IMG/VR virus record: IMGVR_UViG_3300009147_000001
Location: 32,001 to 96,000 of that record
Strand: one strand, 5' to 3'
Source of the DNA: a virus
DNA: 64,000 nt
Positions 39,950-61,520 of the stretch are shown piece after piece (positions within the stretch are counted from its first letter, which is position 1; each line of letters begins with the position of its first letter). The position numbers and the translations under genes are program-made. The notes beneath the pieces are model-generated. The model saw only the letters and a list, made by a program, of their open reading frames with translations. It was not told the DNA's origin and ran no database searches.

Positions 39950-41148
39950 CAGAAGTGCACATTCGTGGTAAAGTAACCCTTGTCAGTCAATGAAGTACCT
40001 AGCTCACCCGGGGTGTAAATGTCGGCCAAGCTCATAGTGCAGCCTAGCTTGAAAATATGCATTAACCCATACCGTAACGCGTCAATGGCATGATCTTCAT
40101 ATTTAATCGCGTCTTCCCGTGGGTTACGCGGTGTGCGACCAGACGGCGAATGGGCTCGATAGTTATTCATTTCGTGAATAAGCGCGCGACATGAGTGGTC
40201 AACATATAACCACGGTTCCTCCAGCGGAGTACCATACTCGTCGACCTCACCCACTTGCTGAGTGCGCAAAAATGTCTTCACCAAATCAATGCCCTCACGC
40301 CAGTTGGCTTTACTCTCTGGTCTAGCCACACATGGTGAAAATTTCTGCGATACAGTTGCTACCGCTTCTGGATCAGCAGCATCGCCAAAACACAGGTCTA
40401 TTCGATAACCCTCTGGTTGGTCACGCGTGCGCAGTTCACCGAGAAAGTCATCGAGGCGCACCCCGGCTTTATAGTGTTCTCGCCAGACATGCACTCGATC
40501 CATCGGGTCAACCTGAAACTCCACGGCGGCCATGGGATTAACATAGCCCCAGTCAAAACAAATGAAGTTCTTCCATGCCGGGTTATAGGTAATCTGTTTG
40601 ACGTGAGTCTGTTCATCCCACTCGCTGAAAATCTTTCCCATAAACGAGGTAAAGTCAGCAGCAATTTCCTGTTGAAACCACTCAAAGGGGAGTGTACGCT
40701 CTAGAAGGATAATCTCAGGATCATTACGACCACCTGGATAAACGACCGGATTCTCCCAGGATGGAAATCGCCACGACTCAAAGTCACTAAATGCTGGGTT
40801 TCGCCCGTATTGCCATAAATCGTGTAACCAGTTTTGTCCCTCTGGTGTAGAAGAAAACGTCGCCTGACCACGCTTGTCTGCTAAGGCCGGCTGAATGTAT
40901 CGACTCCACGTTTCACGATTGTGCTTCGCTGCCTCGGACATTATCACATAGTCAAGTTTTTCCCCAACCAGATTGTCCGGGCGATCAGCGCTACGCACCT
41001 CAATAATAGTATTCCATGGAAACTGGATGAACATGTCACCAACACGTTTGTTGTAACTTTTCTTTACTTTCTTTTCTTGCCCTAACCGCAGACCAACTAT
41101 CATATCCTGCCAAATAACTCTGAATTCCTTCTCACCAAGGTCAATCAT
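39949..41148 (-). CDS. terL: terminase large subunit, C-terminal part (Walker B, motif III, nuclease)
   Basis: VIMSEAA, SSTPEG, FDWGY and DHAIDALRY motifs; out of frame with the N-terminal part. Confidence 0.9.
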   Translation of the reverse strand: MIDLGEKEFRVIWQDMIVGLRLGQEKKVKKSYNKRVGDMFIQFPWNTIIEVRSADRPDNLVGEKLDYVIMSEAAKHNRETWSRYIQPALADKRGQATFSSTPEGQNWLHDLWQYGRNPAFSDFESWRFPSWENPVVYPGGRNDPEIILLERTLPFEWFQQEIAADFTSFMGKIFSEWDEQTHVKQITYNPAWKNFICFDWGYVNPMAAVEFQVDPMDRVHVWREHYKAGVRLDDFLGELRTRDQPEGYRIDLCFGDAADPEAVATVSQKFSPCVARPESKANWREGIDLVKTFLRTQQVGEVDEYGTPLEEPWLYVDHSCRALIHEMNNYRAHSPSGRTPRNPREDAIKYEDHAIDALRYGLMHIFKLGCTMSLADIYTPGELGTSLTDKGYFTTNVHF

Positions 41149-43474
41149 AGGTATTTCCGGTGTAATAGACAGAGCTGTTTCGCTTTGCCAACCAGTTACC
41201 ATTTTTGGTAGTAACACACCATACTGTACCTATATATTGCTCACCCCCTATCTTGATGCCTCGGGGACCAGCAACATATTGCGCCCGCTGTGGATTAATA
41301 AATCGACTCGTCAGTAATCCCAAAACCCAACCGTTGTTGCCATCCTTTGTTCGTGGTCTTATACTAGTAGCTATACCAATGAGTGAGCAGGCCAATTGAA
41401 CGGCAAATAGCTGCTCCTTACTCTCCTGATATATGACTTTTTGACATGATTCATAGCCGTCTTTATACTGTTTTCCGACTGTTCCATCCCCTAGCATAGA
41501 TATATCAACAAACAATTTTAATTGTGAAAATGTGAGATCCATAATGAACTGTGGATCAACTATCTTGTGGTCTAGGAATACCTTCTTGAATTCTCTTCCC
41601 AAAACTTTTCCTATATTAAATCGTGTCATATTCGGACTTGTTGCATAAATGCGGTCAGACCAATATTCAAACGCATGATAACTATCACCCAGGTGTGGGT
41701 TGGGACAGAGTTCAGTAAGTGCACGTCGTATTCGCGCTACATTATCAGGATTTGCCACATGAGATTGATGAATGGTTAACCCATCACCTCTACTGCCATT
41801 CCTCGATCCTTCAGCCCACAGCCACGCGACTAGTTCCACGAAAGCATCTGTATACTTTGGCTCGGTGGGTACAGTTGCACATACCGCAGCCTTCGGAATG
41901 CGATCGTCGGCAGTTAATGTTGCTGTTGTCCGCCAGGTCCAACCATTATCAGTTTCTGGTAATAAGTGCTCAATTGGTTTCAGCACCGATGGAAGTTTAG
42001 ATCCATCCTTTTTATAGCCTATACCTGGCCTTCGCTGAGTTAACCAACGATGATCAGGAGTGGTAAGAGCAGAAAAAGAATGTCCTTCCATCCTAATAAC
42101 ATCATGCGTCCCTGGGTTTAGTAATACCTTCTCAACGGTATCCCACTCACTCAAACCAGTTATTGGGTTAATCGAAAGCGTCTTGTCACCAACGACAACC
42201 TCATCATACCTTAACCAGCCACGCGCAGTGAGAATTTCAGTTTCTTCATCTACACAAGGCCCCACTATCCAAACGTGTTTATTAGGAATCATGAGTATTG
42301 GTTCGACTTCGCGTGCTCCCATGAATGTATTGTGGGTAGCAATATAGGAGCCGCCAGCTAGGTATAGATGAGATTTACTATCGACTGCAATACATTTCAT
42401 CCAAACTGGTCTCGTTATGGGCGTGATGGATGTAATAAATCTAAAGTAATGCTTGCGTCTCGGTAGCGCACGCTGTGCAGCTAACTTCCTTGGTAAGCTG
42501 AATACGTCTATGATATTACCTGTGTGGATTCGATAACACAGCTTCTTCGGTACACCATAGAGCTTACCCACTCTCTGTGACCGCACCACTCGTCCGCCAA
42601 GTGAGCAGATAAGTGAGTCTACTGCATCCACGAGATTTTTGTTTGTACTATCAAAGTCCACATGATTATTAGCCACTGAACCATCACTGTCCATGAGTCC
42701 ATGTAGAAGGTCCATTCGCTGTTCCACAGAGCCGTACAAGTACGTTGTTGGTACATGCTTAGTACCTAGTAATAGTTGCTCCCTTAATAAAACTCGTAGC
42801 CCATGGATTCTCCATGACGTACATCGATCCTTGTGCTCATGTCGCGTTACCTCCCACCCACGCGCGCTTATTTTGTCAATTATCCATGAATCAGAGTCCG
42901 GTATAGTAACGATACCATCGCTGCTACTACCATCGCCTAACCATACACCCAATACGTATGGGTCAATTGGAAGGTCCTTTTTCGCGTATTGTACTGGACC
43001 AGCCAATGTGATCGCATGATTTACCTCTGGCTTCTTTGATTTTGTATACAATGTTGAGGCAATTTTATTAGTGGTACGGACCGCGGGTTTGGTCATACGA
43101 CGAGAATCGGTTAGCGCCTTCCGCGCTGCTTTATCGTACGTTAACCATTCATGCTCACCATGAGCAACTAAGGTAGACCCGTCATCAAAAGTTACCAGAA
43201 AGGCATCAGTGCGAGCCTGTATATTGCTCGTACCTATAACGGTACATGGATGCCCGTGTTCGTCAAAGACAATATCACCATGCTCAAGTACTCCCATGGG
43301 CACCATGCCGTCAGGCGTGGGAATTGGCGTATTTACTTCTAAGAGTTTCCCGAACCGACGCCCACAGACGGGAATCTTAAATCTGGCGGTACTGTCATGA
43401 AACAGTCGCTGCTTTTCATGTGGCACATAGCCAATAAGGTCAAAGTACTTTTCCTTGGAAATAGCTAACGACAC
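41141..43474 (-). CDS. terL: terminase large subunit, N-terminal part with two inteins; ends TYD-stop
   Basis: PHEKQ, Walker A GRRFGK/T and WIVGP/TYD. Confidence 0.9.
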   Translation of the reverse strand: MSLAISKEKYFDLIGYVPHEKQRLFHDSTARFKIPVCGRRFGKLLEVNTPIPTPDGMVPMGVLEHGDIVFDEHGHPCTVIGTSNIQARTDAFLVTFDDGSTLVAHGEHEWLTYDKAARKALTDSRRMTKPAVRTTNKIASTLYTKSKKPEVNHAITLAGPVQYAKKDLPIDPYVLGVWLGDGSSSDGIVTIPDSDSWIIDKISARGWEVTRHEHKDRCTSWRIHGLRVLLREQLLLGTKHVPTTYLYGSVEQRMDLLHGLMDSDGSVANNHVDFDSTNKNLVDAVDSLICSLGGRVVRSQRVGKLYGVPKKLCYRIHTGNIIDVFSLPRKLAAQRALPRRKHYFRFITSITPITRPVWMKCIAVDSKSHLYLAGGSYIATHNTFMGAREVEPILMIPNKHVWIVGPCVDEETEILTARGWLRYDEVVVGDKTLSINPITGLSEWDTVEKVLLNPGTHDVIRMEGHSFSALTTPDHRWLTQRRPGIGYKKDGSKLPSVLKPIEHLLPETDNGWTWRTTATLTADDRIPKAAVCATVPTEPKYTDAFVELVAWLWAEGSRNGSRGDGLTIHQSHVANPDNVARIRRALTELCPNPHLGDSYHAFEYWSDRIYATSPNMTRFNIGKVLGREFKKVFLDHKIVDPQFIMDLTFSQLKLFVDISMLGDGTVGKQYKDGYESCQKVIYQESKEQLFAVQLACSLIGIATSIRPRTKDGNNGWVLGLLTSRFINPQRAQYVAGPRGIKIGGEQYIGTVWCVTTKNGNWLAKRNSSVYYTGNTYD
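41153..42256 (-). mobile_element. TerL intein 2 (368 aa, class 1)
   Basis: WIVGP/CVDEETEILTARGW...TTPDHRW...LVAWLWAEG...MLGDG...YYTGN/T. Confidence 0.92.
42329..43345 (-). mobile_element. TerL intein 1 (339 aa, class 3, Leu1) in the P-loop
   Basis: GK/LLEVNTPIPTPDG; WCT triad from HEW, KCIAV and ATHN/T; LGVWLGDG and LMDSDG endonuclease motifs. Confidence 0.9.
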
Positions 43475-45546: not shown

Positions 45547-46316
45547 AAAATTGACGAATTACATAATAAAATATTGACGCTTTATTATATCTAGGCTATA
45601 CCTCGATATCGCAGATATTATTTGAATTAGCTAACACGATAATTCAAACCGTCAAAATATTATAATTCAATAACTCACCAAAAACAAGGAGGACCCTGCC
45701 GGAATGTCCTTTTTATACCGTTTTGTTATAATATAGTTATTTTGTTCACATTTAATAACATTAATACCATTTCATACCCTTTTATGTGGTTTGTCCCATT
45801 TATACTATTATATCAGGATATCGAAATGCCTGAATTATCGTAAATTGGCGATTTATCCATTCAATCGGGTAAATACGACATATACGATATGTCGCATTTG
45901 GCGATTTATAAGCATAAGGGGTGAATTACTAGCATAGTGGGTGAAATATCGGGACATTTCGGACATATCGGGTCTACAGATGGCGCCATGTGGATCAAAA
46001 AAGTGTCCAAAATATCATAACTTGTTCTGAAATGTCCTATTTTGTCACCATTTTTATGCGTATTTTAGCCCAGATTTTTGAGCCCATATATACTAGTAAA
46101 TCCGGACATTTACGCATATAACCAACATTTGGGACTGTGCTATAGTGGTGATAGCGGGGGAAAAGGGACATAAGGTGGGAAACGGAACTTTCGGAAGTAT
46201 CCGAAAAGCCGGGGAAATCCTACCAAATCGTACTTTGACAAGACAATAGAGGAAATGCAGGATCTATCCGGATCTAAGGGGCTATGTCCAGACAAAAATG
46301 GACATAGGAGGACAAA

Positions 46317-46514
46317 GTGCCTCAAATCGGGATAAGTGACGGAAAACCCGTCATTTTCGCCCATGTCGGCGATATCGTATATAGCCCGAAAAACCACCCT
46401 TTCGAGGGAAGAATCACCTATGTCGGCAAATACGGAGTCAAAGTACGATGGATAGTACCTAACGGACAAAACTGGACAGAGTGGGTGTTAAAGGACACTC
46501 TGGGCATAAGCTGA
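46317..46514 (+). CDS. small hypothetical protein (IR cassette 1)
   Basis: GGACATAGGAGG leader; enclosed by IR pair. Confidence 0.75.
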   Translation: MPQIGISDGKPVIFAHVGDIVYSPKNHPFEGRITYVGKYGVKVRWIVPNGQNWTEWVLKDTLGIS

Positions 46515-46617
46515 CACAAGCGGACATAGCCTCCTAAATCCGGATAGATCTGGACATGCTCTCCTATATCCACCTATGTCCGGACAGGGTAGGGAAAAAC
46601 GGACATAGGAGCACAAA

Positions 46618-46857
46618 ATGCTAGAAATCAGAGTAAACCCGGACAAGACGGTGCAGATCCCTCTGATCGGGACATTCTTCACGTACCAGGGCGAATCGTA
46701 CGTAGTGCTCCGAACCACCACATACCAGGAGCAAGGCGACGATACGCTCATTCCGGTCTTTACGACCATAGCTCTCATTCTTCGCGTAAACGACGAAGGC
46801 GACGATCTGGGCGAAGAGACCAAAGAGGTCAACGCGGACGAACTGACTGAAATCTAG
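46618..46857 (+). CDS. small hypothetical protein (IR cassette 2)
   Basis: AAACGGACATAGGAG leader; enclosed by IR pair. Confidence 0.75.
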   Translation: MLEIRVNPDKTVQIPLIGTFFTYQGESYVVLRTTTYQEQGDDTLIPVFTTIALILRVNDEGDDLGEETKEVNADELTEI

Positions 46858-46962
46858 AAAAAACCGGATATAGGTGGATATAAGAGAGCATGTCCTCGCA
46901 CATTAGGTTCTATCCGGATCTATGGTGCTATGTCTGGACAGAAACGGACATAGGAGACAAAG

Positions 46963-47145
46963 ATGGGCATAGCAGCAGCAATCCTGAAAATCGTGTTGAT
47001 GGCGGTCGTTTCCATCCAAAACGCGACAATCTCGGACATGCAGGACAAGTCGGAGCATTTCCCGGTATGTCACAGCATAAGGGAAGATGAACCACCTTAT
47101 GACTGCGATTACGTCCATCACGCATGGATACCCCGTAACCGGTAA
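46963..47145 (+). CDS. small protein with signal-peptide-like N-terminus (IR cassette 3)
   Basis: AAACGGACATAGGAG leader; hydrophobic N-terminus. Confidence 0.7.
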   Translation: MGIAAAILKIVLMAVVSIQNATISDMQDKSEHFPVCHSIREDEPPYDCDYVHHAWIPRNR

Positions 47146-47247
47146 ATAACGGACATTCCAGACGTAGCATCATAAATCCGGATAGAACAGGACTAAGTCG
47201 GGTTTAGGGTCCATGTGCCGTAAAAACGGACACAGAGGACAAAAACC

Positions 47248-47841
47248 ATGAAATGGTTGAAAGTAGTCGCATTCGCCATAGTTGCCGCAGTCGCGGCATA
47301 CAAGTCATTCTGGCACATGTACGACCAAATCACCGTAAAGACCGCAGAATCTGACCCAATGGGCATATCGCCCTATATCCTCCCAATCTCCGTAGATGGG
47401 TTGTTAGTGGTCGCAGCGATCGAAATCCGGACAGCCAGGACATTAGGGCGATCTTGGGTTAAACTCCGCAAAAACCTCGTAGCGTACATAGGGTGCGGAA
47501 CCGGACTTCTCATGTCAGGGTGGGCAAACTGGAACTCAGTGGACAAATACACCCTGATCGCTGTAATATGGGCCATATGGCCCGTATTTGCCCTTTTCGC
47601 CTCACTTGAGGCCATTCTGGGCACAGTGCTACAAAAGCCGCGATCCAAGGCAAAGGCCGTGGTAGAACCAAAAACGGACACAACCGCCCAAAAGCCGAAG
47701 AAGTGGGCAGATCTGACGGAAGCGGAAAAGAAGGCAATCCGGTCAGAGCGGTCAAAGCGGGCAGCACTGACAAACCGGAGGAAAAAGGCCATAGCGGCCG
47801 AAGACGCCGCAATCGCCCAAGCAGAGCAAATCCTAGCGTAA
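47248..47841 (+). CDS. DUF2637-like membrane protein (IR cassette 4)
   Basis: AAYKSFWHM and PISVDGL motifs; four TM segments and a basic tail. Confidence 0.78.
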   Translation: MKWLKVVAFAIVAAVAAYKSFWHMYDQITVKTAESDPMGISPYILPISVDGLLVVAAIEIRTARTLGRSWVKLRKNLVAYIGCGTGLLMSGWANWNSVDKYTLIAVIWAIWPVFALFASLEAILGTVLQKPRSKAKAVVEPKTDTTAQKPKKWADLTEAEKKAIRSERSKRAALTNRRKKAIAAEDAAIAQAEQILA

Positions 47842-48266
47842 CAGCCAAAAGCGGCACATGGGCTCCAATCCCGACTTAGTCAGACATACTCTCCTATATC
47901 CTGCCATGCCCGGACAAAACGGACATTAGGCACTTAATAGGCGGTTCACACTTTGTCACCATAAGGTTCACTGTCAGGTTTCCGACAGATCAACATCCCT
48001 TTTGGGGTCTTGTGCTCAGAAATATCGTACATGTCTAGATTTAACCGCATATATCAGGGCAAGTTTTGGCATGATATAAGCGAAGAATCGGACATATCAC
48101 GAAAACCCGGGCGGAGTAGACTGGAGGAAACAGGTGGGAACGGAAGCATCCGGCAAATCCGGACAGCCCGGGGAAACCCTCCAAAATCGGACATTGACAC
48201 CTAAACAGTGACAGACGAGGGCTTACCCGGCCCTATCCTCTCATGTCTGGGCGGAAACGGACAGAA

Positions 48267-48509
48267 ATGGACATTTACCACATTCACCCATACATGGTAC
48301 GACCCGTCCGAAGCTGCACCAAAGCAGACATCCAGCGCCAAATGGACAGACTTCGCAGCGAGGGACAGATCGAACCTATCGTGGTAAAACCGCCGAAAAT
48401 GGGACAATACGAGCCAGATCGGGAGCATCCCGACTACTGGTACTACTCACCCGAAATGGTCGAAGCGGCCATAAGGCTCGGATGGGATGAAATACTCGTA
48501 ACCTACTAA
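48267..48509 (+). CDS. small protein with weak ParB-N-like pattern (IR cassette 5)
   Basis: LRSEGQIEPIVV...AAIRLGW; AAACGGACA leader. Confidence 0.65.
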   Translation: MDIYHIHPYMVRPVRSCTKADIQRQMDRLRSEGQIEPIVVKPPKMGQYEPDREHPDYWYYSPEMVEAAIRLGWDEILVTY

Positions 48510-48629
48510 TCTAGTAGATGTCTAGACATGAGGGGTTAAGACCGGGTAAGCCCTAGGTTGTACGGATTTGTAGCGGTATGTCCAAGAATCCCCAAGATCA
48601 ACAGCTAGAAACGGATAAAGGGGACAAAA

Positions 48630-48854
48630 ATGGACAATCAAGGCAAGCTCAGCAAAGTACACAACATGCTCGAAAAGGGACAGATCAGCCTAATCGACGC
48701 ACAGGTGTACATTGACGACATCTCCCGCGAAACCAGCGCATTGTGGGGCCAGTACCCCAAAACCCTCCAGAGCTGCCCATTGTGCACCATCGGGATGGTC
48801 CGGATGATCGTGTACTTTCTGCGCATTCGCGACGGTTCGGTCGTAGCTGACTAA
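48630..48854 (+). CDS. small hypothetical protein (IR cassette 6)
   Basis: AAACGGATAAAGGGACA leader; enclosed by IR pair. Confidence 0.7.
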   Translation: MDNQGKLSKVHNMLEKGQISLIDAQVYIDDISRETSALWGQYPKTLQSCPLCTIGMVRMIVYFLRIRDGSVVAD

Positions 48855-48903
48855 CACCAGCAAAAAGGACATACCGCTACATGTCCGTACAAAAGGAGGG
48901 AAG

Positions 48904-49101
48904 ATGGCCGTAAAATGGCCAAAACGGATATTCCCCTGGGAAGAGCCCATGTCGGACTACGCACGCAGAGCGCGCATGGCCGACAAAACGGACAAGGAGC
49001 CCAAAATCCACGTATCGGTGCACATCAGGGTAACTGCCACCGAACGGGCATTACGGTTCGATTTCAGCAAACCGGACCAAACGGAGCTGTGGGGCTTCTA
49101 G
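48904..49101 (+). CDS. hypothetical protein
   Basis: AAGGAGG RBS. Confidence 0.6.
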   Translation: MAVKWPKRIFPWEEPMSDYARRARMADKTDKEPKIHVSVHIRVTATERALRFDFSKPDQTELWGF

Positions 49102-49223
49102 GAAGGAACGGACAATGTTGACACTTAGGGCACACTGGCGCAAAGCGCGCTGGGCCTGGACAAGCCGGCGAAACGGACAGTACCGGTTCAAGGTACATTC
49201 CGTCTAGAACGGAGAAAACGGAC

Positions 49224-49364
49224 ATGTCAGACAAAGACCTCGAATACCTCAACTGGCTCGAAACCGTCCTGTGGGACGAAACGGAGAAATCGTACATCTC
49301 CGACTTCCTGCGCTTTATGGCTGCATTCGACCATTACGTCGGAAGGTACCGCAAAAACGGCTAA
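49224..49364 (+). CDS. hypothetical protein (46 aa, not in ORF track)
   Basis: GGAGAAAACGGAC-ATG; reads MSDKDLEYLNWLE...; hairpin begins at its stop. Confidence 0.6.
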   Translation: MSDKDLEYLNWLETVLWDETEKSYISDFLRFMAAFDHYVGRYRKNG

Positions 49365-49448
49365 TCGGACAGTTTACATCATACGCACCATATGGTGCGT
49401 ATGGTGTAACCTGCCCGAGAGCAGGCAAAACGGACAAAGGAGCAAACA

Positions 49449-49739
49449 GTGAATAACTGGGCATCCGGGATCTACTACCCAGATACGAAAAGCACGAACG
49501 AATTCGTGTCCAACACGACATTTGGGCATGCACTACGCACCATGCTCAAAGAGGCCCAAGAGCGGACAAACGACGCTTACGACAACAACGACCACGAAAC
49601 TGGCAAAATGTACGAAGTGCTCGTTGCAGACATTCGCGACATCGCCGACGACGAGGGCATCATGGACGATCCGGACATGTGGGAGGAACAGACCTTTTAC
49701 CTCGATGACGACACCGAGTGGTACATCGGACAATACTGA
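49449..49739 (+). CDS. acidic hypothetical protein
   Basis: AAACGGACAAAGGAG leader. Confidence 0.7.
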   Translation: MNNWASGIYYPDTKSTNEFVSNTTFGHALRTMLKEAQERTNDAYDNNDHETGKMYEVLVADIRDIADDEGIMDDPDMWEEQTFYLDDDTEWYIGQY

Positions 49740-49816
49740 CATCTAGGTCGTTCTCATCATAGGTGACTTTCTGGTCACCTATGGCGAAATCCACCTAGAC
49801 AGGAGGAAAACGGACA

Positions 49817-50050
49817 ATGGACCCAACCCAGACATTGCGGGACATGCTCAACCTTATCCAGCAAATCGGACAACTCGCCACATTGGAGGGTCATCTACGC
49901 AATCTGGACGAATTGAGCGAAAAGACCGCAGACCTGCGCGAATGGCTCCTCAATGGAGGATACGCCCCAGATCTACTATTCTTCCACACAGCGGACGAAC
50001 TCCCGCAGTTCGCCCAAATCGACACGAGACTGGAGAATGAAGACGTCTAG
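49817..50050 (+). CDS. hypothetical protein (MDP...L.EWL..GG.AP pattern)
   Basis: AGGAGG RBS; resembles the C-terminal half of 56565-56765. Confidence 0.7.
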   Translation: MDPTQTLRDMLNLIQQIGQLATLEGHLRNLDELSEKTADLREWLLNGGYAPDLLFFHTADELPQFAQIDTRLENEDV

Positions 50051-50134
50051 GTCGTTCTAGTCCAAGATGGGCATTGCGCCCATCTCGGGCTAAATCCACC
50101 TAGACGTGGAGAAACCAACACAAAAGGACATGAA

Positions 50135-50335
50135 ATGGACATCCAGGACATCATCGACAATCCCGTCTTCATGGACAAAGCGGCGCAAAACCTCATGATT
50201 CTGCGCATCCTGCGCAAGCTGGGCGTAGACCTCAATGAGGTCTTGCCGGACCTTCCGGACGGAGTGAGCATCGACGACATTCACGCCCTTCTGGACGATC
50301 TGGACGAATTCCTCCTGACGGGCGTATCCGTCTGA
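50135..50335 (+). CDS. acidic hypothetical protein
   Basis: AAAGGACA leader. Confidence 0.65.
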   Translation: MDIQDIIDNPVFMDKAAQNLMILRILRKLGVDLNEVLPDLPDGVSIDDIHALLDDLDEFLLTGVSV

Positions 50336-50686
50336 AATCGGACAGGATCGGACGAATGAAGGTAAATCGGACAAAAGGCGGATGGCTGGTCATAGGCACC
50401 AGAAAGGAACTACACGACCTTACCATACCGTACATCATCAAACCGGACACATGCATCAAAAACCGGTAAATCGGACATCTCGGGTCATTCTGGGGCAAAA
50501 GCCCCAGAGTGGTCAAATATGCCCGAAACGGACATATCAGACAATCAGAACGTATAGGGGCATACCGGGCATATGGGTCAAAATGGACATAGCGCTCCCT
50601 GAATAATCATGGGAGAAATCCTGGCAATTGGGCCTAATTGCGTCCAATTGGCCAAACCACGTCCAAACGGACAAAAGAGGGTAAAA

Positions 50687-50893
50687 ATGAGCAATGAGGG
50701 TACAATTGACGACCAGGGTAAATCCCACATCTGGGTCGTTCAGGGCTATTACCAACCATACGGGTGGGAAGACCTCACCGCGGAGGAAACCTACCCAGAA
50801 GCCCTGAAACGGAAGAAAGAGTTCATAGACAATGAAGGTGGTAAGTACCGCATCAAAGTCTACATAGACCCAGAAACCAACACCGATTGCTGA
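50687..50893 (+). CDS. hypothetical protein
   Basis: AAACGGACAAAAGAGGG leader; VVQGYY..YGWED motif. Confidence 0.7.
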   Translation: MSNEGTIDDQGKSHIWVVQGYYQPYGWEDLTAEETYPEALKRKKEFIDNEGGKYRIKVYIDPETNTDC

Positions 50894-50960
50894 ACCGGAC
50901 AGATCGCATCAATCACGGCATAAGCCGTGATCGGTGCCATCGAGCCCGAATCGAACAGAA

Positions 50961-51209
50961 ATGGACATCATGTCACTAAAGGTAGGAACCATCATCACTC
51001 GGTACCATCCACTCCTAAGAGAACTAACGTGTGAAGATGGAGTATGTGTGGGCAAGATACTACGAACGTTCACATACGCCAACTATCATCACGTAGAAGT
51101 CACATGGTGGGAAACCTGCTCATATCACAACTACGACACATCAACAAACACATATCTCTTCCTCCACGACGAGATATGGGAAATCGGACAAATCCCGGAA
51201 ATCTCCTGA
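50961..51209 (+). CDS. hypothetical protein
   Basis: Lies between two related hairpins. Confidence 0.65.
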   Translation: MDIMSLKVGTIITRYHPLLRELTCEDGVCVGKILRTFTYANYHHVEVTWWETCSYHNYDTSTNTYLFLHDEIWEIGQIPEIS

Positions 51210-51283
51210 ACCGGACAGATCGCATCATTCTTGGCACTGTGCCAAGAATGGTGCAATGTGCCTGACACAGAGGAGAAACGGAC

Positions 51284-51961
51284 ATGACGAACAAGGTAGA
51301 CACACTACGCCACTCCGACTTTACGGTCGAATGGATCGACCCGAATGATATCTCCACCATTCGGGACAGAGGCTACGTAAATCCCTATCAACTGGACAAA
51401 ATCCCACATAAGGGGGCAATCCCGTTCGTTGATCTCGGATCGGTTGCAGCCGGCGAAGACACCGCAAACCAGACATCCACCGTCAACCGGTCCAATTACC
51501 GAAGACTACGCGAAGACTACCCAACCGTGTTCATCAACGTCAGCTATTACAACGTGGACACATTGGGTGCGATCGTGCCAGATCTCCCCGATGAGGTCAT
51601 CAACCTCCTTATCGGATTAAAAGAGGACTATCCGCTCTACGACGAGGAAGACCTCTGCAATCTGGAGGATGAGGAAATAACGGACTCCTGGGACCAATGG
51701 GTTCGATCCGACGTTTCCTCCATCATCATCGAAAAGCTCTCTTACGCCGAGGATGAGGACACCCTCGACACATGGTACAAAATGGACAAAGAGCACGAAG
51801 CAGAGCTTTTCTGGCGATGTGTGGAGGATCTGGACAGATACCCCGAACACAGCGGTATTGAGGTCATCTGGAACGATCTGGACAAAATCGCCGAAAGGAT
51901 GATCCGCTACCTTTCCGGGGAAATTACGCCAGTTCCGGACGATCAAGCACCTTTGTTCTGA
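51284..51961 (+). CDS. acidic phage protein (DYPLYDEED motif)
   Basis: GAGGAGAAACGGAC-ATG; 225 aa. Confidence 0.78.
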   Translation: MTNKVDTLRHSDFTVEWIDPNDISTIRDRGYVNPYQLDKIPHKGAIPFVDLGSVAAGEDTANQTSTVNRSNYRRLREDYPTVFINVSYYNVDTLGAIVPDLPDEVINLLIGLKEDYPLYDEEDLCNLEDEEITDSWDQWVRSDVSSIIIEKLSYAEDEDTLDTWYKMDKEHEAELFWRCVEDLDRYPEHSGIEVIWNDLDKIAERMIRYLSGEITPVPDDQAPLF

Positions 51962-52030
51962 TTTGGTGCGAAGCGTATCATAAGATACGCTTCGAGCCAT
52001 GTCAGCGCAAGGAGGGAACAACGGACAATC

Positions 52031-52204
52031 ATGACACTTAAGACAATAAGAACAACAGTAGACAAAATAGCTGGAATGTACACGTATCAGCTCAGAATCG
52101 TCGAAAACGGACTAGAAACGGACAAAGTAGTCATTATCCGGGCTACTAACCCACTATACCTCGAAAAGGATACGTGGGTGGAAATAGACTTTCCCGACGA
52201 TTAG
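52031..52204 (+). CDS. hypothetical protein (57 aa, not in ORF track)
   Basis: AAGGAGG...AACGGACA leader; between two hairpins. Confidence 0.6.
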   Translation: MTLKTIRTTVDKIAGMYTYQLRIVENGLETDKVVIIRATNPLYLEKDTWVEIDFPDD

Positions 52205-52290
52205 AACATTATGGTCATAGTTCGCAGACCATGCGAACTATGGCCATCCTATTCTCATCTGCCAGACCAAGAAAAACAAAGATCATTATG

Positions 52291-52319
52291 TTGTCAAGAT
52301 CTTGACACACTGGTAGGCT
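52291..52319 (+). promoter_or_regulatory. promoter with palindromic operator-like site over the -35
   Basis: TTGTCA-N17-TAGGCT; perfect 16-bp palindrome TGTCAAGATCTTGACA at 52292-52307. Confidence 0.6.
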
Positions 52320-52324
52320 GACAG

Positions 52325-52760
52325 CACACGGGGACATCGGGATCACGATACTACGGGCCAAAACCCCGAAAGTCATGATGCCCATTGAATCGGACCTATA
52401 GTGCATAGACTGCGCTATCCGCTTGAAAAAACCATAGTGACTTTTCTGCCACGGGCAGGCTGACGCACCCGCGTCACCCTAGCCCGTTGGGCTCCCAGTG
52501 ACCAGCGTATACGCCCTGTATGGGCCGCTAGCACACGATCCCGCCACGGTGGTACCCCGAGGTATCAACCGTCACGGATCATGGCGCAGCGTGGCGCTCA
52601 GCGCGTTTTCCCTGGTCACTGACCTATGGTCGGGTAGGAACAAAAGCGCAAAAACGCGATGACAGGATAAATCGGACACTTCGTTCATTATCCTCATATC
52701 ATCCTGAGTAGCGTAATAACGTCCTATCCGTGCCATAGGCCACGAAAGGAGCCGACTGCT
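52325..52760 (+). ncRNA. candidate structured non-coding RNA
   Basis: No + strand ORF in the track; GC-rich nested stems, e.g. CAGTGACCAG/CTGGTCACTG; downstream of a promoter. Confidence 0.4.
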
Positions 52761-52838
52761 CGTGAGGTTCTGCTCAGAAACGTGCTAGCAGTCACGTTTC
52801 TGGTCAAAGTCTCATGAAACGGACACAAGGAGACAAAA

Positions 52839-53930
52839 ATGGACAAAGACCAACCTATCATCATCGTTGGGGGATCTCTGACCGGACCGGTTATGTCACT
52901 CTTATTGATGAATGCCGGATTTAGCAACGTTCACCTCTATGAGGCAATTCCACCCAATATTTCCCCATCAGGTGGAGTAATCGGACTTGACCACTACGCC
53001 CTGGACGTACTGGAAAGTGTCGGAATCATCCAGAACGAGATCATTCCGTTCACGTCTGAGCGCGTCATTGCTATCAAACTACGCTCGGGCACCGAAAACC
53101 AGACATTCTACCCAGGACGCAACACCACGTGGTCAATTCTGCACACTGCACTCATGCGCCGAATGCCGGACAATCACTACCACCCGGGCAAGAAGGTTAC
53201 GAGTGTGAATACTGGATACATCGGATTTTCGGATGGTAGCACGACAGAAAGTGCATTCACCATCTTTGCCGATGGACGCCGCTCTACTGGACGAAAGCTG
53301 CTCGACCCAACCCGAAAGCTCCATTACGCCGGATATGTAGCGCACCGAGGCATTCTCGACCGGTGTCCTCCTGACATTCGCGACTTCCTGCGCTTTGAAG
53401 GGCAAGACACCGCATTTAACGTCTTTCCCATCATTCAGGATAACGGGGCAATCGGCATGGACTGGACATTCTACCTCAACACGTCAGAACCGGATTTTCG
53501 CCAGCATTTCGGTGCATCACCGGTCGTAAAGACCTTCATGCACCAAATCCCTTCTGATGTAACTACCGTGGTCGATTGTGCCGCTACTCGCACACTCACG
53601 GAGCAAACCGCACATCTTGTGCACTCAACTGCAACGCGGATGGCGGTGCCCATCGTGGACATCGACCAGCCAACTACCATGATCTTCAACAACGGGTCAA
53701 GCGTGCTCATTGGTGACGCACTGGCCCCGGTTCGCCCACATACCGCTAGGGGCGCCAATAATGGGATAATAGCCGCCCAGTCGCTCATGGTAGCTTTGCG
53801 CCATCATGTCAACCATGGAGCAAATCTCCTTTCCGCCCTAAAAGGTTGGGAGTCACGGCTTTTGCCTACTATCCACCAAGATGTAGCCAATGGGCCTATT
53901 ATGGGCGCTAAGCTCGGATTGGGAGGCTAG
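52839..53930 (+). CDS. FAD-dependent monooxygenase (2,6-dihydroxypyridine hydroxylase-like)
   Basis: IVGGSLTG, FADGRRS, YAGYVAHRG and LIGDA...RPHTARG motifs. Confidence 0.85.
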   Translation: MDKDQPIIIVGGSLTGPVMSLLLMNAGFSNVHLYEAIPPNISPSGGVIGLDHYALDVLESVGIIQNEIIPFTSERVIAIKLRSGTENQTFYPGRNTTWSILHTALMRRMPDNHYHPGKKVTSVNTGYIGFSDGSTTESAFTIFADGRRSTGRKLLDPTRKLHYAGYVAHRGILDRCPPDIRDFLRFEGQDTAFNVFPIIQDNGAIGMDWTFYLNTSEPDFRQHFGASPVVKTFMHQIPSDVTTVVDCAATRTLTEQTAHLVHSTATRMAVPIVDIDQPTTMIFNNGSSVLIGDALAPVRPHTARGANNGIIAAQSLMVALRHHVNHGANLLSALKGWESRLLPTIHQDVANGPIMGAKLGLGG

Positions 53931-54098
53931 ATGACCAAAGCCAAAGACCTGGAACCAGGAGATCAGATAAAGCTAGAAATAGACGGTGTGGTTAACACAG
54001 AACGCCCAGACGGGTCAACCTGGACATATCTCTATTTCACCACCACCACTGACACACTGTACATACCGAGCGATAGCGACATATCTACCGAGTCATGA
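53931..54098 (+). CDS. hypothetical protein (55 aa, not in ORF track)
   Basis: GGAGG RBS; starts MTKAKDLEPGD. Confidence 0.6.
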   Translation: MTKAKDLEPGDQIKLEIDGVVNTERPDGSTWTYLYFTTTTDTLYIPSDSDISTES

Positions 54099-54170
54099 CG
54101 CTCTAGTGCAAAGCGTACTATACGGTACGCTTTGTGCTATACCGCCATGAAACGGACAAAGGATCACAAA

Positions 54171-54509
54171 ATGTCACACTTCCACGTAGGCCATAACATG
54201 CCGGGCTATCTGCCCGAAAGCGACATCATGTGTTTCGATAATGCAGAAGACGCAATTCGAGCCCTAGGGGATGAACTGGACAAAGCTATCGACACCCTCT
54301 TCGAATTCAACAATTCTGCTCTCAAGGACACACTCTACGCAATAGTAGAAATCTACCAGGATGGAACATCCCCGGAGTTCTGCGACGTTACATACGAACT
54401 GCATGAAGGTCGCAGCGTCCGACACAGAGTCGACGGGTATGAATACTGGATCGAACCGGTCAATCACGCCTATGACGTCTGTGAATGTCGAGAACCGTAC
54501 CTAGAGTGA
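54171..54509 (+). CDS. hypothetical protein (GHNMPGYLPE motif)
   Basis: AAACGGACAAAGGA leader; between two hairpins. Confidence 0.72.
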   Translation: MSHFHVGHNMPGYLPESDIMCFDNAEDAIRALGDELDKAIDTLFEFNNSALKDTLYAIVEIYQDGTSPEFCDVTYELHEGRSVRHRVDGYEYWIEPVNHAYDVCECREPYLE

Positions 54510-54686
54510 GGTTCTAGTCATATCCGACTAACCTAGTCGGATGTGGCTAAATCCCTATGAAAGGATGAAAAAATGGCACTATGGAATGCAACCGTGGCAG
54601 TTGCCATTATCAAGGCACGCCGCCGAGGAGACAACGAATTCGCCCAATTCCTCAAAACCCTTCTCTTCTAGACCTACGGAACAGAA

Positions 54687-54869
54687 ATGGACGAACCATA
54701 CGACAACGGTGATCCGGTTACATTCTGCACGGAATGCAATCATGCCGACATCAAACACACATCGTTTGAACCAGACGAATGGGACGAATGGGCCAATGTA
54801 CTTAAATGCCAGGAATGCGGACAATTGTGCTGGAATGCCCAATTCGTCACCCTGGAGTACCTGATCTGA
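54687..54869 (+). CDS. small zinc-ribbon protein
   Basis: CTEC...CQEC. Confidence 0.6.
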   Translation: MDEPYDNGDPVTFCTECNHADIKHTSFEPDEWDEWANVLKCQECGQLCWNAQFVTLEYLI

Positions 54870-54909
54870 TCGAGGAGGAACGAGACAATTCAACAGAATA
54901 GGATAATCC

Positions 54910-55191
54910 GTGCGTAAATTACTCAAATCAGACCTAACCGTCACAAATCCACCACAACCTCGCCAACCATCACCATACCGAGAAGCATGGACAATTGACT
55001 TCCATGACCGCACATCGGTCATTGTCTTCACATATGACACCATGGTAGCAATTGTCAGAAAGACGATAGATCACGTCCCATTGCACCATGGTAATACCAA
55101 AAAGGTGCATTATCAACTCATAAAGTGGATGGATGACGATAAAGGGTACGAAATTCTTAGCTCGGTAGAAATGGACATAAAACTCATCTAG
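54910..55191 (+). CDS. hypothetical protein
   Basis: AGGA upstream; same strand as neighbours. Confidence 0.55.
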   Translation: MRKLLKSDLTVTNPPQPRQPSPYREAWTIDFHDRTSVIVFTYDTMVAIVRKTIDHVPLHHGNTKKVHYQLIKWMDDDKGYEILSSVEMDIKLI

Positions 55192-55312
55192 ACAGTTATG
55201 GTGTGGATCGGACAAAACATAACATATAACAATCATACCCCGATTCACGCCATATCTACCTAGACCGGGTAGATAACCAGAAAACCAACACACAGAAGGA
55301 TACATCACCACA

Positions 55313-55699
55313 ATGGATCTCAGTGCCTATATGTACGACAGTGACGGATTCAACGCCAATGGTCGCGACAAGTACGGCTATAACCGCAACGGTTATGACC
55401 GGGAGGGTCTCAACCGTGACGGTCTGACCAGCGATGGTTTCAGCGCCCAAGGATGGAACGCCGAAGGACGCGACAAGCGCGGCTTTGACGCCAATGGTCG
55501 CGATGTGAACGGTTTCGACCGGTATGGCTGGGACAAGGATGGTTTCAACCGTGATGGCCTCAACGCTGACGGCTATGACCGCGATGGCTTCAGTAAGGGT
55601 GGATTCAACCGGTATGGCTACAACCGCGACGGCAAGACGCGCCAGCAGGTCTACATCTACAACGAAAAGGGTGAAATCCGCCCGGACCTGACCGCCTGA
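55313..55699 (+). CDS. pentapeptide G(Y/F)(D/N)xx repeat protein
   Basis: About 20 repeats such as DGFNANGRDKYGYNRNGYDREG. Confidence 0.8.
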   Translation: MDLSAYMYDSDGFNANGRDKYGYNRNGYDREGLNRDGLTSDGFSAQGWNAEGRDKRGFDANGRDVNGFDRYGWDKDGFNRDGLNADGYDRDGFSKGGFNRYGYNRDGKTRQQVYIYNEKGEIRPDLTA

Positions 55700-55764
55700 C
55701 CGTTTTCGTCATAGACGGCACAGCCGTGTCGTCTATGGCGAAATCGACCAGGAAAGGACAAATC

Positions 55765-56088
55765 ATGACCACCTACGGCAAAGCACGTGAAGAGACCATC
55801 AACGCTCTCATTGAACGAAAGCCGTTCATGAGATCAGGCTTCGGCATGAAAGCCTTCAACCGGGCAACGGAACTAAGAGGTCGACTTCCCGAAAAATGGG
55901 TCAATGAGTACGCAATAGACGAACTCGAAGGAATAGTCTATACCGTCGTTTCCTACATGACTCCCATTGCTTGGGTAAAAAGGGACGGAACCGTTGTCAT
56001 TCCTGACATATACTATTCCCCCACCACATCAGCCCATCAGGGACTATGCCGGACATACCTTACCTCCGGTAAAGGATATAACACCTGA
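55765..56088 (+). CDS. conserved phage protein (YTVVSYMTPIAW...YSPTTSAHQ)
   Basis: GAAAGGACA leader; recognisable motif. Confidence 0.75.
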   Translation: MTTYGKAREETINALIERKPFMRSGFGMKAFNRATELRGRLPEKWVNEYAIDELEGIVYTVVSYMTPIAWVKRDGTVVIPDIYYSPTTSAHQGLCRTYLTSGKGYNT

Positions 56089-56223
56089 ACCGGACAAAAG
56101 GATGAACAATGATATACTTCCGACGACGCAAGCCAAACAGTCATAGGTGGGACTTCTAGGTTCGTTTAGTGCAATTGGTCCCATGCGGACCAATTGTGCT
56201 ATGCAAACCGAGAAAGGACAATA

Positions 56224-56568
56224 ATGGACAAAACACTCGAAAAGGCTAGAGCGCATAATAACATGCCATTCGTCATCTATTTGATGAACGCCGTGATGCG
56301 CACACCAACGTACCAATCCAATCAAAGCACCTATGCCTTCTGGTTGTGGTACCAAGCGATTAGATGGGACTATCGGGACAAAGATCCTGATCCTATCAGC
56401 ATAAAACGGATTTATCACAAAGACCTGATCGGATGGGACGTCAACGGCAGAGACTGCGAGGTGTGCCATATGCACCCGCATAGTCACGACTGGATGGACC
56501 TGGACATTAACGGCTTTGCCGTCAATTGCTCCAATATCGACAGAACATCACCAGTGAGCACGATATGA
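56224..56568 (+). CDS. hypothetical protein
   Basis: GAAAGGACA leader after a hairpin. Confidence 0.65.
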   Translation: MDKTLEKARAHNNMPFVIYLMNAVMRTPTYQSNQSTYAFWLWYQAIRWDYRDKDPDPISIKRIYHKDLIGWDVNGRDCEVCHMHPHSHDWMDLDINGFAVNCSNIDRTSPVSTI

Positions 56569-56765
56569 GCAAAGAGACACACATCAACAGCATTCTCGCC
56601 ACAATGCGTGAAATTCACGCACTCAGCACAACGGACGTTCATGCCTACCTCAAGCGCCAGCGGGAATTTCTGGAGCTATGGGAAGAACTGGACAAATTCC
56701 TACAATCAGGCGGCTTCTGGCCAAACATGACTATCGTGCGAAACGGATGGTTTCTAGAGAAATGA
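56565..56765 (+). CDS. hypothetical protein
   Basis: ATGA-coupled; LDKFLQSGGFWP. Confidence 0.6.
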   Translation: MSKETHINSILATMREIHALSTTDVHAYLKRQREFLELWEELDKFLQSGGFWPNMTIVRNGWFLEK

Positions 56766-57025
56766 GCACATATCACATACGATATAACAATGGGTCTCCG
56801 GCAGACAATCTATCCCGAGCGCAGCTCGAAGGAGCCATAGCGTCCTGGTTGACGAAAAATCCGTCCACATCCGACGATAGTAGCATCCATACCGTCTACA
56901 TCACGGTCAACGACCGAATGGTACCTATGCGCATGCATACGTACGGTCATGACAATGGGACATTCACTGTACTATTGTCACTCGCCGGAGTTACCATCGA
57001 AAAGTTCACCATAACCGTACAATAA
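56762..57025 (+). CDS. hypothetical protein
   Basis: ATGA-coupled. Confidence 0.6.
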   Translation: MSTYHIRYNNGSPADNLSRAQLEGAIASWLTKNPSTSDDSSIHTVYITVNDRMVPMRMHTYGHDNGTFTVLLSLAGVTIEKFTITVQ

Positions 57026-57034
57026 CTCCATAAC

Positions 57035-57076
57035 GGACATAGCAGGCATAGCAGACATAGCAGACATAGCAGACAT
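57035..57076 (+). repeat. 9-bp tandem repeat (AGACATAGC, about 4.5 copies)
   Basis: ggacatagc aggcatagc agacatagc agacatagc agacat. Confidence 0.85.
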
Positions 57077-57302
57077 ATGTGTATACAAGGTGCTATATAG
57101 CCCTATGTGGTCTATATAGTGCCTTCCGTACATATAAGGCAATTCGCGCAATTCTGTCCAATTGGCCAATTCTGGGTCAATTGGCCAAAATGAGGATAAA
57201 TCTGCGGGGGCCTTCGTCATAGCCTCGCTGCCCCACAGCAGGGGTGGCTCAGGGTAAATATCCCCGACATCCACTAAACTACACACAAAGGATAAAACGA
57301 CA

Positions 57303-57482
57303 GTGGAATACGAAAAGCACCGTAATGCTCAGGTTGACAGTAATGGTAATAACACCAAGTTTGCCGCCAAAAAGCGTAAGCGCCGTCGCCGTACCACACT
57401 CACCCCGGAGGCCATCTCGCGGCTATCCAACCGTGGTCCTGATCTTGACTCGCGCACTGCTGGCACCTCGTTCATTTGGTGA
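57303..57482 (+). CDS. small basic protein (59 aa, not in ORF track)
   Basis: AAGGA upstream; MEYEKHRN...KKRKRRRRT. Confidence 0.5.
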   Translation: MEYEKHRNAQVDSNGNNTKFAAKKRKRRRRTTLTPEAISRLSNRGPDLDSRTAGTSFIW

Positions 57483-58554
57483 CAGATTACCGTCATAAGC
57501 TGCTGACAAGATCGTGATGCATCAACCAACACTGATAAAGAATCCTATTAGTTGGGAGTAAAAACAAATAAAAACAGGGGACAAATCACCCAAAACCGGG
57601 ACAAGCGTGGACTTTGTTGCTCATGATCTTTTTGGGTACTCTTCCAGGAGCGCGATATTCCTGTGAGAACAAAACCGACATCTCGGTCTTTTTGATTTCG
57701 AGAATCAGTCCAAAACGGACAAATCGTCTCGTAAGGGATGTTAATTCGTAGGCGAGAAAACGCGTACCTTCGTCCAAAGCAGGGGAACAGACTCTTTCAG
57801 AATATGATGGTTTGTCCTGTGACGCACTTCACAAGATCACAAGCCATCCAGGAATCGGGACAATTCGGACATTCTAGACATTTCACCCGATATCTAGACA
57901 AACCACCACGAAAGCCACGTAAAACATCACCCTCCCCTAACAACCCCGCCCCCCTCACCACGAAAAGGTCCGCAGATCCACATATCCGCAACTAAGGGTA
58001 ACTAAAGTCCTATTTAAATAGGGACAAAATAGGACATACTAGGCGTGGGAGCGCTTCCAATGACAGTTTATTGACTGACGGATTAGCTTCTTATCCGATA
58101 ATATTCGCTGTCTACTCATCCGTTCGTACTAAGCATACCTACCCGAAAGTGAGTGGATCTCTCCTGTTGGATGAATAGATCACCTACTCTTGCCGTTTAT
58201 CCGCTAACACATTAATTGTCAACACATCCAAATCAGACCCCACATGCAGCTCATCCCTCACAATCCATTCACTACAATAAGTACTGTTTATTTTTAAACA
58301 CCAACATCATCCGTTCGGAGGATGTCAAGATACTTAAGATAACGTTTATTCCCTGACACATTGACCGTTCCCTATTAACTTGTCGATCCCTATCAATTTC
58401 CACCTGCGGCGCGCGGTGCCTGCCTGTGGGGGTCTGTCATGTCCCGCAGGGCCTCATGGATAGACTTATATCGAACTAACCGTGCGTTCGTTGGGCCAGA
58501 GCCTGATGGCACCCAACCTCGTTTTTCCTTTTCTCACTGAGTCCTGTTTGGTCA

Positions 58555-58583
58555 TTGACACAATAGTTGTTTTCTGCTAGGCT
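58555..58583 (+). promoter_or_regulatory. SigA/HrdB-type promoter, probably leaderless transcript
   Basis: TTGACA-N17-TAGGCT with TG extension; ATG lies 6 nt after the -10; no SD sequence. Confidence 0.75.
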
Positions 58584-58589
58584 CAACGG

Positions 58590-59486: not shown

Positions 59487-59628
59487 GCTATCCAACCCAG
59501 CACAGCAGAAAAAATCTTGAAAAATGCTGCACCAGTGGGACTAGCAGGCCCTACGGGTGTGTTATAGTAGGTGTACCGGCAACACCGCCGTACACCAAGG
59601 TTTCCAAACCGAAAGGGACACACCGACC

Positions 59629-60357: not shown

Positions 60358-60742
60358 CAAGCCATTCCATGATGGTCTTTGGTGATAGCCAGTAGCAATA
60401 CTGGCTATTGCCATGGATAATCACCGAAGATTAAACAAAAAGGACGATAAACATTGGAAGTATAACTGTCGCTCTTAACAGTATAGCGGCAGCTTAGGTG
60501 GAGGTGTACAATACAGGCAAAGACCTCCTCCATACAACAAAAAGTATACTATGTATTAAGTCGGTGCAGCGTTTTACGCTACATCGGTCGGATGTGGGAC
60601 AAAAGGTATTCTAGAGTACTGACAAAACCCACACATCATATAAAACGGAATAAGTCATACGCGAGCCACGCGTTTCCCTGGCCAATCCACGAGGATAGAC
60701 AACAATTGTTGTCTATCCTCTTGTGGTATGAATAAAGGATAA

Positions 60743-61449: not shown

Positions 61450-61520
61450 TAGTTTTTAGTGGTAGGCATTCGACGGAATGCCTATCGCCATGAATTATCA
61501 ACGAGCAAAAGGACACAATT

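Follow-up and report, generated by a model that had tools for sequence, protein, structure and literature searches.

Six gene-enclosing stems in the early region

The stretch of DNA analysed here (64,000 nucleotides, hereafter the window) comprises bases 32001-96000 of the complete 110,163-bp virus record IMGVR_UViG_3300009147_000001, which has direct terminal repeats at its ends and represents an uncultured phage from soil. At 46261-48892 of the window, among the early genes, lies an array of six small genes, each placed in the loop between two complementary arms of its own. The tape-measure, portal and large-terminase genes are located on the - strand at 13-44 kb, and a divergent + strand region of small genes begins at approximately 46 kb. 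A blastn comparison of the region with 50,697 phage records gave zero matches and revealed no related cultured phage; the closest cultured matches of the portal protein were to actinophages, with approximately 27% identity. The six units (U1-U6) are listed below.

46261-46289 and 46522-46550, + strand: 5' and 3' arms of U1, 29 bp (26 Watson-Crick pairs, 1 G.U, 2 A.C)
46317-46514, + strand: gene of U1, 65 aa, no family
46552-46583 and 46864-46895, + strand: arms of U2, 32 bp (30 Watson-Crick pairs, 1 G.U, 1 A.C)
46618-46857, + strand: gene of U2, 79 aa
46907-46938 and 47157-47188, + strand: arms of U3, 32 bp (29 Watson-Crick pairs, 2 G.U, 1 A.C)
46963-47145, + strand: gene of U3, 60 aa, hydrophobic N-terminus
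47191-47220 and 47852-47881, + strand: arms of U4, 30 bp (26 Watson-Crick pairs, 2 G.U, 1 A.C, 1 T.T)
47248-47841, + strand: gene of U4, 197-aa membrane protein
48218-48252 and 48520-48554, + strand: arms of U5, 35 bp (29 Watson-Crick pairs, 3 G.U, 2 A.C, 1 T.T)
48268-48509, + strand: gene of U5, start ambiguous (48243 or 48268)
48558-48583 and 48867-48892, + strand: arms of U6, 26 bp (24 Watson-Crick pairs, 1 G.U, 1 T.T)
48630-48854, + strand: gene of U6, 74 aa

Block 1 of the array consists of four genes (U1-U4) and block 2 of two (U5 and U6). The stems are 26-35 bp long with 24-30 Watson-Crick pairs each, their arms being 82-94% complementary, and they close loops of 218-631 nucleotides (nt). 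Within the blocks, successive units are separated by gaps of 1, 11, 2 and 3 nt, in agreement with the spacing of 1-11 nt given by an initial sequence-only reading of this DNA. Every loop contains a single open reading frame (ORF) with its own Shine-Dalgarno sequence and stop codon; the stop codon is followed by the 3' arm after 6-12 nt, and 15-46 nt separate the 5' arm from the start codon. The arms are private to each unit, with some resemblance between the 5' arms of U3 and U1, and their outer ends have no sequence in common.

All six arm pairs of the sequence-only reading were recovered at the same positions by a repeat search and by a separate genome scan; one repeat search placed the 5' arm of U5 at 48211-48248. 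The description of the enclosed genes as small and unrelated, each lying with its ribosome-binding site (RBS) entirely between the arms, also held: there is one ORF per loop, and the encoded proteins are mutually unrelated ORFans. No PHROGs family was found for eight small proteins tested, the six enclosed ones among them, and Pfam returned only weak matches for the latter (U4 to DUF2637, U5 to ParB_N).

The genome-wide scan (110,163 bp) required 20 or more Watson-Crick pairs per stem and a loop of 60-2500 nt. The six stems were the only strong gene-enclosing long-range stems found in this 110-kb scan, the remaining output being U1/U3 arm cross-matches, one isolated pair and two pairs with short loops (30-31 nt) from the small-RNA region beyond the window. 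Three long-range stems are included in the minimum-energy fold of a 951-nt stretch on the + strand (z = -9.2).

Conservation, folding strand and shared motifs

Relatives of the phage were found via the terminase; a search with a 225-aa early protein gave no match. Arrays of this kind, in the same place and with different arm sequences, are present in at least 14 related uncultured phages. These arrays are located upstream of the large-terminase gene (TerL) on the opposite strand (contigs L009, L010, L067, L075, L078, L080, L082, L090-L093, L095 and L120, with L090, L091, L092, L093, L095 and L120 being soil-type metagenome contigs), and they comprise nine units in L009, six in L010, approximately eleven in L067 and at least six in L078. 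The arms vary from unit to unit and from phage to phage. Most relatives at 53-62% terminase identity have local hairpins only. An exception is L119, whose TerL is 53% identical to that of L067: at 6257-7358, three gene-enclosing stems directly adjoin one another, with arms that are GC-rich and unrelated in sequence, and the enclosed genes are on the matching strand. Neither AUGUCCG nor UCUAAA (described below) occurs in these stems, which retain a central mismatch.

Covariation of the arms in homologues had been proposed as a check by the sequence-only reading, and it was found. L010 and L082 have five orthologous units in conserved order, and RNAalifold recovered the long-range stem in both of the two units to which it was applied. 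In the first unit compared between these phages (34 pairs), both sides have changed in four pairs and one side in two, with none broken; in the second (29 pairs), there are one double and three single changes, all of them G.U-compatible. Both sides have also changed in four of the 30 pairs of a unit common to L067, L078 and L009. In a further unit, designated X, four pairs beside the centre read ACTG/CAGT in one of the phages L067 and L078 and CTCT/AGGG in the other. Such compensatory double changes in orthologous stems, without broken pairs, indicate that the pairing is under selection.

The strand that folds was addressed through the mismatches, whose classes were counted by script over 21 stems and whose positions along the stems were placed by hand; the stems of the remaining relatives were inspected only. 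Read on the coding strand, the 21 stems contain 27 G.U pairs, 24 A.C and 14 other mismatches, totals that look symmetric if taken alone. In the outer two-thirds of the stems, the count is 17 G.U against 0 A.C. All 24 A.C mismatches fall within 0.40-0.68 of the stem length, and their orientation is constant, C on the 5' arm facing A in 16 cases and, three pairs higher, A on the 5' arm facing C in eight. In addition, the one-sided substitutions between the L010 and L082 orthologues (two units) all yield G.U on the coding strand. Because the outer mismatches and the one-sided changes are G.U on the coding strand and would be scattered A.C on the opposite one, the comparison identifies the sense (coding) strand as the strand that folds. 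Taking the covariation and the strand bias together, we are largely confident that the stems are selected sense-strand RNA helices.

The gene-enclosing (split) stems have a common layout, with a lower stem of approximately 12-14 bp, a central defect and an upper stem of approximately 12-16 bp that usually ends in AUGUCCG/CGGACAU. In the window, the mismatch pattern agrees with its first description, a C.A (or T.T) mismatch lying 11-14 bp from the stem base and the other irregularities being G.U; a second A.C often follows 2-3 bp above the C.A or T.T. In L009, L067 and L078, the same hexamer, UCUAAA, stands on both arms of the central defect. Paired antiparallel, it gives U-A, C.A, U-A, A-U, A.C and A-U, that is, two mismatches 3 bp apart. 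By its sequence, the central defect is a pseudo-dyad that has been kept despite two mismatches, as a symmetric dimer reading both strands would require. Some stems have T.T or G.G instead of the central A.C mismatches; U4 and U6 have T.T, so the motif is degenerate within the window.

A related structure recurs further downstream, between the early genes that follow the array.

49365-61501, + strand: approximately 16 local intercistronic hairpins
49365, 49742, 50043, 50471, 50897, 51209, 51953 and 52199, + strand: 5' ends of local hairpins 1-8
52760, 54088, 54510, 55695, 56154, 57076, 60365 and 61446, + strand: 5' ends of local hairpins 9-16

Each of these hairpins lies in the interval that separates a stop codon from the following Shine-Dalgarno sequence. 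From base to tip it consists of a 7-10 bp lower stem, a symmetric internal loop of 2x2 to 4x4, a 13-18 bp upper stem and a 3-6 nt loop. No U tract follows any of the approximately 16, on which ground intrinsic terminators were rejected. Comparable local inverted repeats number only four in 1-44000, among the structural and replication genes, and all of them are shorter (16-21 nt). The summed minimum free energy of the 16 hairpins is -521.5 kcal/mol on the + strand versus -486.1 on the - strand, with the + strand being the better one in nine cases. Rfam gave no family matches in the window, and a DNA pattern derived from the local-hairpin motif matched the L009 contig only. One and the same UCU/AAA core is found in the internal loop of the local hairpins and in the central defect of the split stems; because this motif is common to both forms, the split units look like an intercistronic hairpin with a gene in its apical loop. 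The sequence comparisons show that the helices exist, are selected and fold in the sense strand, that they have a motif in common with the local hairpins and that they are conserved in this phage clade.

The lower half of the 5' side is identical over 17 nt in hairpins 50897-50950 and 51209-51265, which flank the gene at 50961-51206. Pairing of the first hairpin's 5' half with the 3' half of the second is thus also possible and would place the gene in the loop. These two hairpins may represent an intermediate stage linking the local form with the split one.

Two short motifs are associated with the starts of the early genes.

46299-59743, + strand: start-associated motif ACGGACA / CGGACAWAGGAG, just upstream of early-gene start codons

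ACGGACA occurs in 32 copies versus 8.5 expected, 26 of them on the + strand in 46.4-59.8 kb, and precedes most early starts; the start-associated 12-mer has nine copies versus 0.49 expected. The second motif, CGGACAUAG, forms the first 8-10 nt of the 3' arm, and an extra copy stands directly before the Shine-Dalgarno sequence, from where it might engage the top of the 5' arm in an alternative pairing.

Processing, clamping or exchange

Helices of the kind found here are well-known targets of RNase III, which cuts the stems flanking 16S and 23S rRNA (PMC6582327), hairpins with internal loops in T7 early mRNA (PMC8708148) and long-range intramolecular duplexes in B. subtilis mRNAs (PMC11780869). 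Each unit offers, on the transcribed strand, a continuous or almost continuous double helix of at least about 20 bp such as an RNase III signal requires (26-35 bp, with 24-30 Watson-Crick pairs, G.U bias and covariation), and, as in the rRNA stalks, the sequence upstream of the enclosed RNA pairs with the one downstream of it. The T7 type of hairpin (local, with an internal loop and no terminator tail) is represented by the 16 local hairpins and not by the six split units. According to the interpretation we favour, the early region would be transcribed as long + strand RNAs, one per block, in which each cistron, RBS and stop codon included, would be closed into a loop by the helix of its private arms. 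Most likely, a double-strand-specific endoribonuclease would then cut at or near the central defect. Host RNase III is the most evident candidate, given that the phage has no such enzyme of its own: a profile search of the complete genome found no Ribonucleas_3_3 or dsrm domain, i.e., no gene for RNase III or for a double-stranded RNA-binding domain. After such cuts, monocistronic mRNAs would be set free with both ends still held together by the upper stem, a terminal duplex of 12-16 bp, and we infer that this would stabilise the messages by shielding the paired ends from exonucleases.

Thus, the best reading of the stems and hairpins is that they are double-stranded RNA processing and stability signals of RNase III type with an rRNA-like topology, which we consider moderately probable. 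For the narrower claim that the helices are cleavage sites yielding end-clamped mRNAs, the balance is close to even, leaning slightly in its favour. A wider reading, that of a general and hitherto undescribed organisation of early phage messages in which each cistron is a self-contained RNA cassette and the private stem serves at once as cutting signal, two-ended clamp and boundary for gene exchange, can be put forward only tentatively; the clamp would in that case possibly double as a structural closed loop for ribosome re-initiation. The sequence-only reading had suggested that the transcript folds into gene-containing loops, which are cut out as end-paired and perhaps circularisable messages. 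Its folding part is upheld, in that the arms pair within a single sense strand with compensatory change kept, and so is the likeness to rRNA processing stalks, as the arms flanking each gene pair with each other; the cutting-out is a step that we infer. Circularisation gained no support, since the genome encodes neither RtcB nor an Rnl2-type RNA ligase.

All the evidence for selected sense-strand pairing applies equally if the helices form in the mRNA and stay uncut, acting as clamps or insulators. Each cistron would then be its own folding domain, with its ends hidden from 5'-end-dependent nucleases and 3' exonucleases, and with its stop codon held beside its own start for ribosomes to re-initiate. 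The tight and constant spacing on both sides of each gene would suit such a role, as would the alternative pairing available to the CGGACAUAG copy, and in the B. subtilis hbs mRNA a 14-bp pairing between the 5' and 3' untranslated regions limits RNase Y cleavage (PMC5737220). However, RNase III classically acts on helices of 26-35 bp, which could hardly escape cutting if the enzyme is present; moreover, the central defect with its pseudo-symmetry resembles a site that a dimer recognises or cuts, a mere clamp would be better without such a defect, and local hairpins of the same family cannot clamp ends. We regard uncut clamps as rather unlikely. Instead of host RNase III, a dimeric factor encoded by the phage might cut or bind the helices, recognising UCUAAA on both strands in a sequence-specific manner. 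In its favour, the hexamer is conserved across otherwise dissimilar arms and across phages and is retained despite two mismatches, and nearly all early proteins are ORFans. Yet Pfam revealed no nuclease or RNA-binding domain in the early region, the motif is degenerate in the window (the T.T of U4 and U6), and L119 has the central mismatch without the hexamer, all of which makes such a factor improbable.

The arms may also be imagined to act in DNA, with the folded single-stranded sense strand recognised by a recombinase or nuclease and with whole arm-gene-arm units, or the gene with its upper stem, being excised, inserted, inverted or exchanged, as in integron- or inverton-like cassettes. The units do behave as modules: X precedes Y in L067, whereas L078 has the reverse order; the arms of unit X are nearly identical although the genes between them are unrelated; and one upper stem is shared by L009 and L067 above lower stems that differ. 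Two gene families (E = 6e-9 and 1e-7) that L009 carries inside split stems are flanked by local hairpins in the window. The gene-content variation bounded by arms that the sequence-only reading had listed as a second check is thus present, in the form of genes swapped inside conserved arms and units shuffled, and these comparisons indicate that the units are modules of exchange between phages. An orphan arm at 47882-47911 points in the same direction, the central hexamer forms a direct repeat flanking each gene, and G.T wobbles are tolerable in DNA hairpins. Nevertheless, a dedicated DNA mechanism is unlikely, because the complete genome contains no Phage_integrase (PF00589), Resolvase or Y1 (HUH) transposase domain and the outer ends of the arms have no common sequence that could serve as a common binding site. 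Of the ssDNA-recombination alternative raised at the outset, the modular shuffling stands, and the absence of a tyrosine or serine recombinase and of a HUH transposase speaks against the rest. Unlike recombinase core sites, the arms are not internally palindromic. It is always the coding strand that folds, each unit contains exactly one complete translation unit, and the same motif recurs in local hairpins between a stop codon and the next Shine-Dalgarno sequence, all of which RNA fits better. Ordinary recombination at shared short motifs, as proposed for the PeSL cassettes of T4-type phages (PMC2839356), can explain the shuffling, with no need for a specialised system. On balance, we hold action of the arms in DNA to be very improbable.

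Three specific DNA elements were considered. For an inverton, judged to be of low likelihood, Resolvase and Phage_integrase are missing, and the arms are 82-94% complementary with strand-biased mismatches and are not identical cores. An integron cassette is of similarly low likelihood, with no PF00589 domain in the complete genome and with arms that flank the gene and have no sequence in common at their outer ends. A transposon, MITE or IS-like element with a passenger gene was rejected, because the arms are private to each unit; no Y1 transposase is present, and the units abut, so a target-site duplication is unreadable.

Several points weigh against processing of sense-strand RNA by RNase III. 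Thermodynamics alone picks no strand for the split stems, the z-score being -11.0 on the - strand versus -9.2 on the + strand, and three local hairpins fold better on the - strand. The mismatch positions were derived by hand, and G.T wobbles are tolerated in folded sense-strand DNA too. The conserved central sequence could point to a sequence-specific factor instead of RNase III. Finally, the cut and the transcript boundaries are deduced from DNA sequence, and RNase III in the host is assumed.

Known systems resemble the array in part. In the rrn stalks (PMC6582327), flanks pair over hundreds of nt into a long helix and successive units follow on one precursor, as here; unlike them, the present units are small protein-coding phage cistrons, each with an RBS, 1-11 nt apart and closed by private stems, and their cleavage is a prediction. 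The T7 sites (R1.1 and others; PMC8708148) likewise belong to an early polycistronic phage operon and consist of helices of about two to three turns interrupted by an internal loop, located between a stop codon and the next start with no terminator after them; the local hairpins at 49.3-61.5 kb fit this description closely. However, the T7 sites are local hairpins, whereas in the six units the whole gene is the apical loop, and there is no sequence similarity. The long-range duplexes of B. subtilis (PMC11780869) and the hbs pairing (PMC5737220) differ in being single cases in cellular mRNAs and not arrays that include every cistron, and no shared central motif has been described for them.

Cluster K mycobacteriophages have a short motif, SAS/ESAS, fused to the RBS of many non-structural genes on one strand and in some cases preceded by an imperfect inverted repeat with a short spacer (PMC3203893), an arrangement resembled by ACGGACA(TAGGAG) and the local hairpins. 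The function of SAS/ESAS is unknown, and a role in translation is suspected (PMC3203893). Their sequence is different, and the ESAS repeats are of 17 bp with a spacer of 4-13 bp, none of them enclosing a gene. The 13-bp Cluster K repeat GGGATAGGAGCCC had two matches at up to 2 mismatches versus 1.1 expected, both on the - strand, which is chance level. The PeSL cassettes of T4-type phages (PMC2839356) also place small ORFan early genes between repeated regulatory motifs, where genes are gained, lost and swapped; in contrast to the private gene-enclosing stems, a PeSL is a sigma-70 promoter with a terminator stem-loop and has the same motif everywhere, and the units here have no promoter or U tract of their own. 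Integron attC sites likewise accompany promoterless small genes in one direction and are variable in sequence and conserved in structure, with fixed mismatches and folding of one strand. In attC, however, a local hairpin with conserved core sites follows each gene, whereas the two halves of the present stems flank the gene and no integrase is encoded.

A full-text literature search found no publication describing arrays of gene-enclosing stems in phage mRNAs. What appears to be new here is the application of RNase III-type processing helices with an rRNA topology to each single cistron of phage early mRNAs. Provided that cutting takes place and leaves the ends paired, a single early transcript would be turned into several messages, each stabilised on its own, in analogy to rRNA processing but at the level of mRNA. 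Gain, loss and exchange of small ORFan early genes with no disturbance to the genes beside them would then also be explained, and synthetic operons could gain a portable insulator and stabiliser part. The symmetric C.A/A.C defect may serve as a defined determinant for studying the choice of cut sites by double-stranded RNA nucleases.

Leader elements and neighbouring features

Both blocks of the array are preceded by a conserved leader and by a promoter-like sequence, and a solitary arm stands between the blocks.

46138-46146, + strand: candidate extended -10 promoter TGnTATAGT of block 1, predicted from sequence
46165-46245, + strand: leader element, copy 1, before block 1
47882-47911, + strand: orphan 5' arm resembling that of U2
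48092-48100, + strand: TGnTATAAG, similar to the candidate promoter, ahead of block 2
48120-48205, + strand: leader element, copy 2, before block 2
7304-7425 and 3826-3945 of L009, - strand: leader element in that phage

The leader is approximately 80 nt long, ends in AAATCG..TTGACA and is conserved in sequence ahead of each block of enclosed genes in two phages; a motif similar to the candidate promoter also stands ahead of the first L009 block. No clear consensus fold was obtained across the window and L009 copies, and the leader might function as a promoter, in antitermination or in protein binding. The TTGACA directly before each block was considered as a -35 box, in which case the implied start would fall inside the first 5' arm. 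A scan for sigma-70 sites with two hexamers did not list TGnTATAGT at 46138-46146, and promoter- and terminator-like sites were at chance level, none of them recurring unit by unit.

The orphan arm has no complement at up to 3 mismatches anywhere in the window and, judging from its sequence, looks like the remnant of a lost unit. A degraded ribosome-binding motif comes next.

Past the end of the window, at 101643-101801 of the genome, there are two adjoining pairs of complementary arms of 30-34 nt with 30-nt loops, located in a small-RNA region; they are probably part of a small-RNA array.

The large-terminase gene (41141-43474, - strand) contains an intein with LAGLIDADG-type blocks, inserted at the P-loop, and close relatives such as L067 have an intein-less TerL of 471 aa. 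Among the early proteins, nearly all of which are ORFans according to PHROGs and Pfam, ten larger ones gave one FAD-binding match and one weak match in Pfam and nothing else. The gene at 52839-53930 encodes a 363-aa protein with a FAD-binding domain of monooxygenase type, which is unusual among these ORFan early genes.

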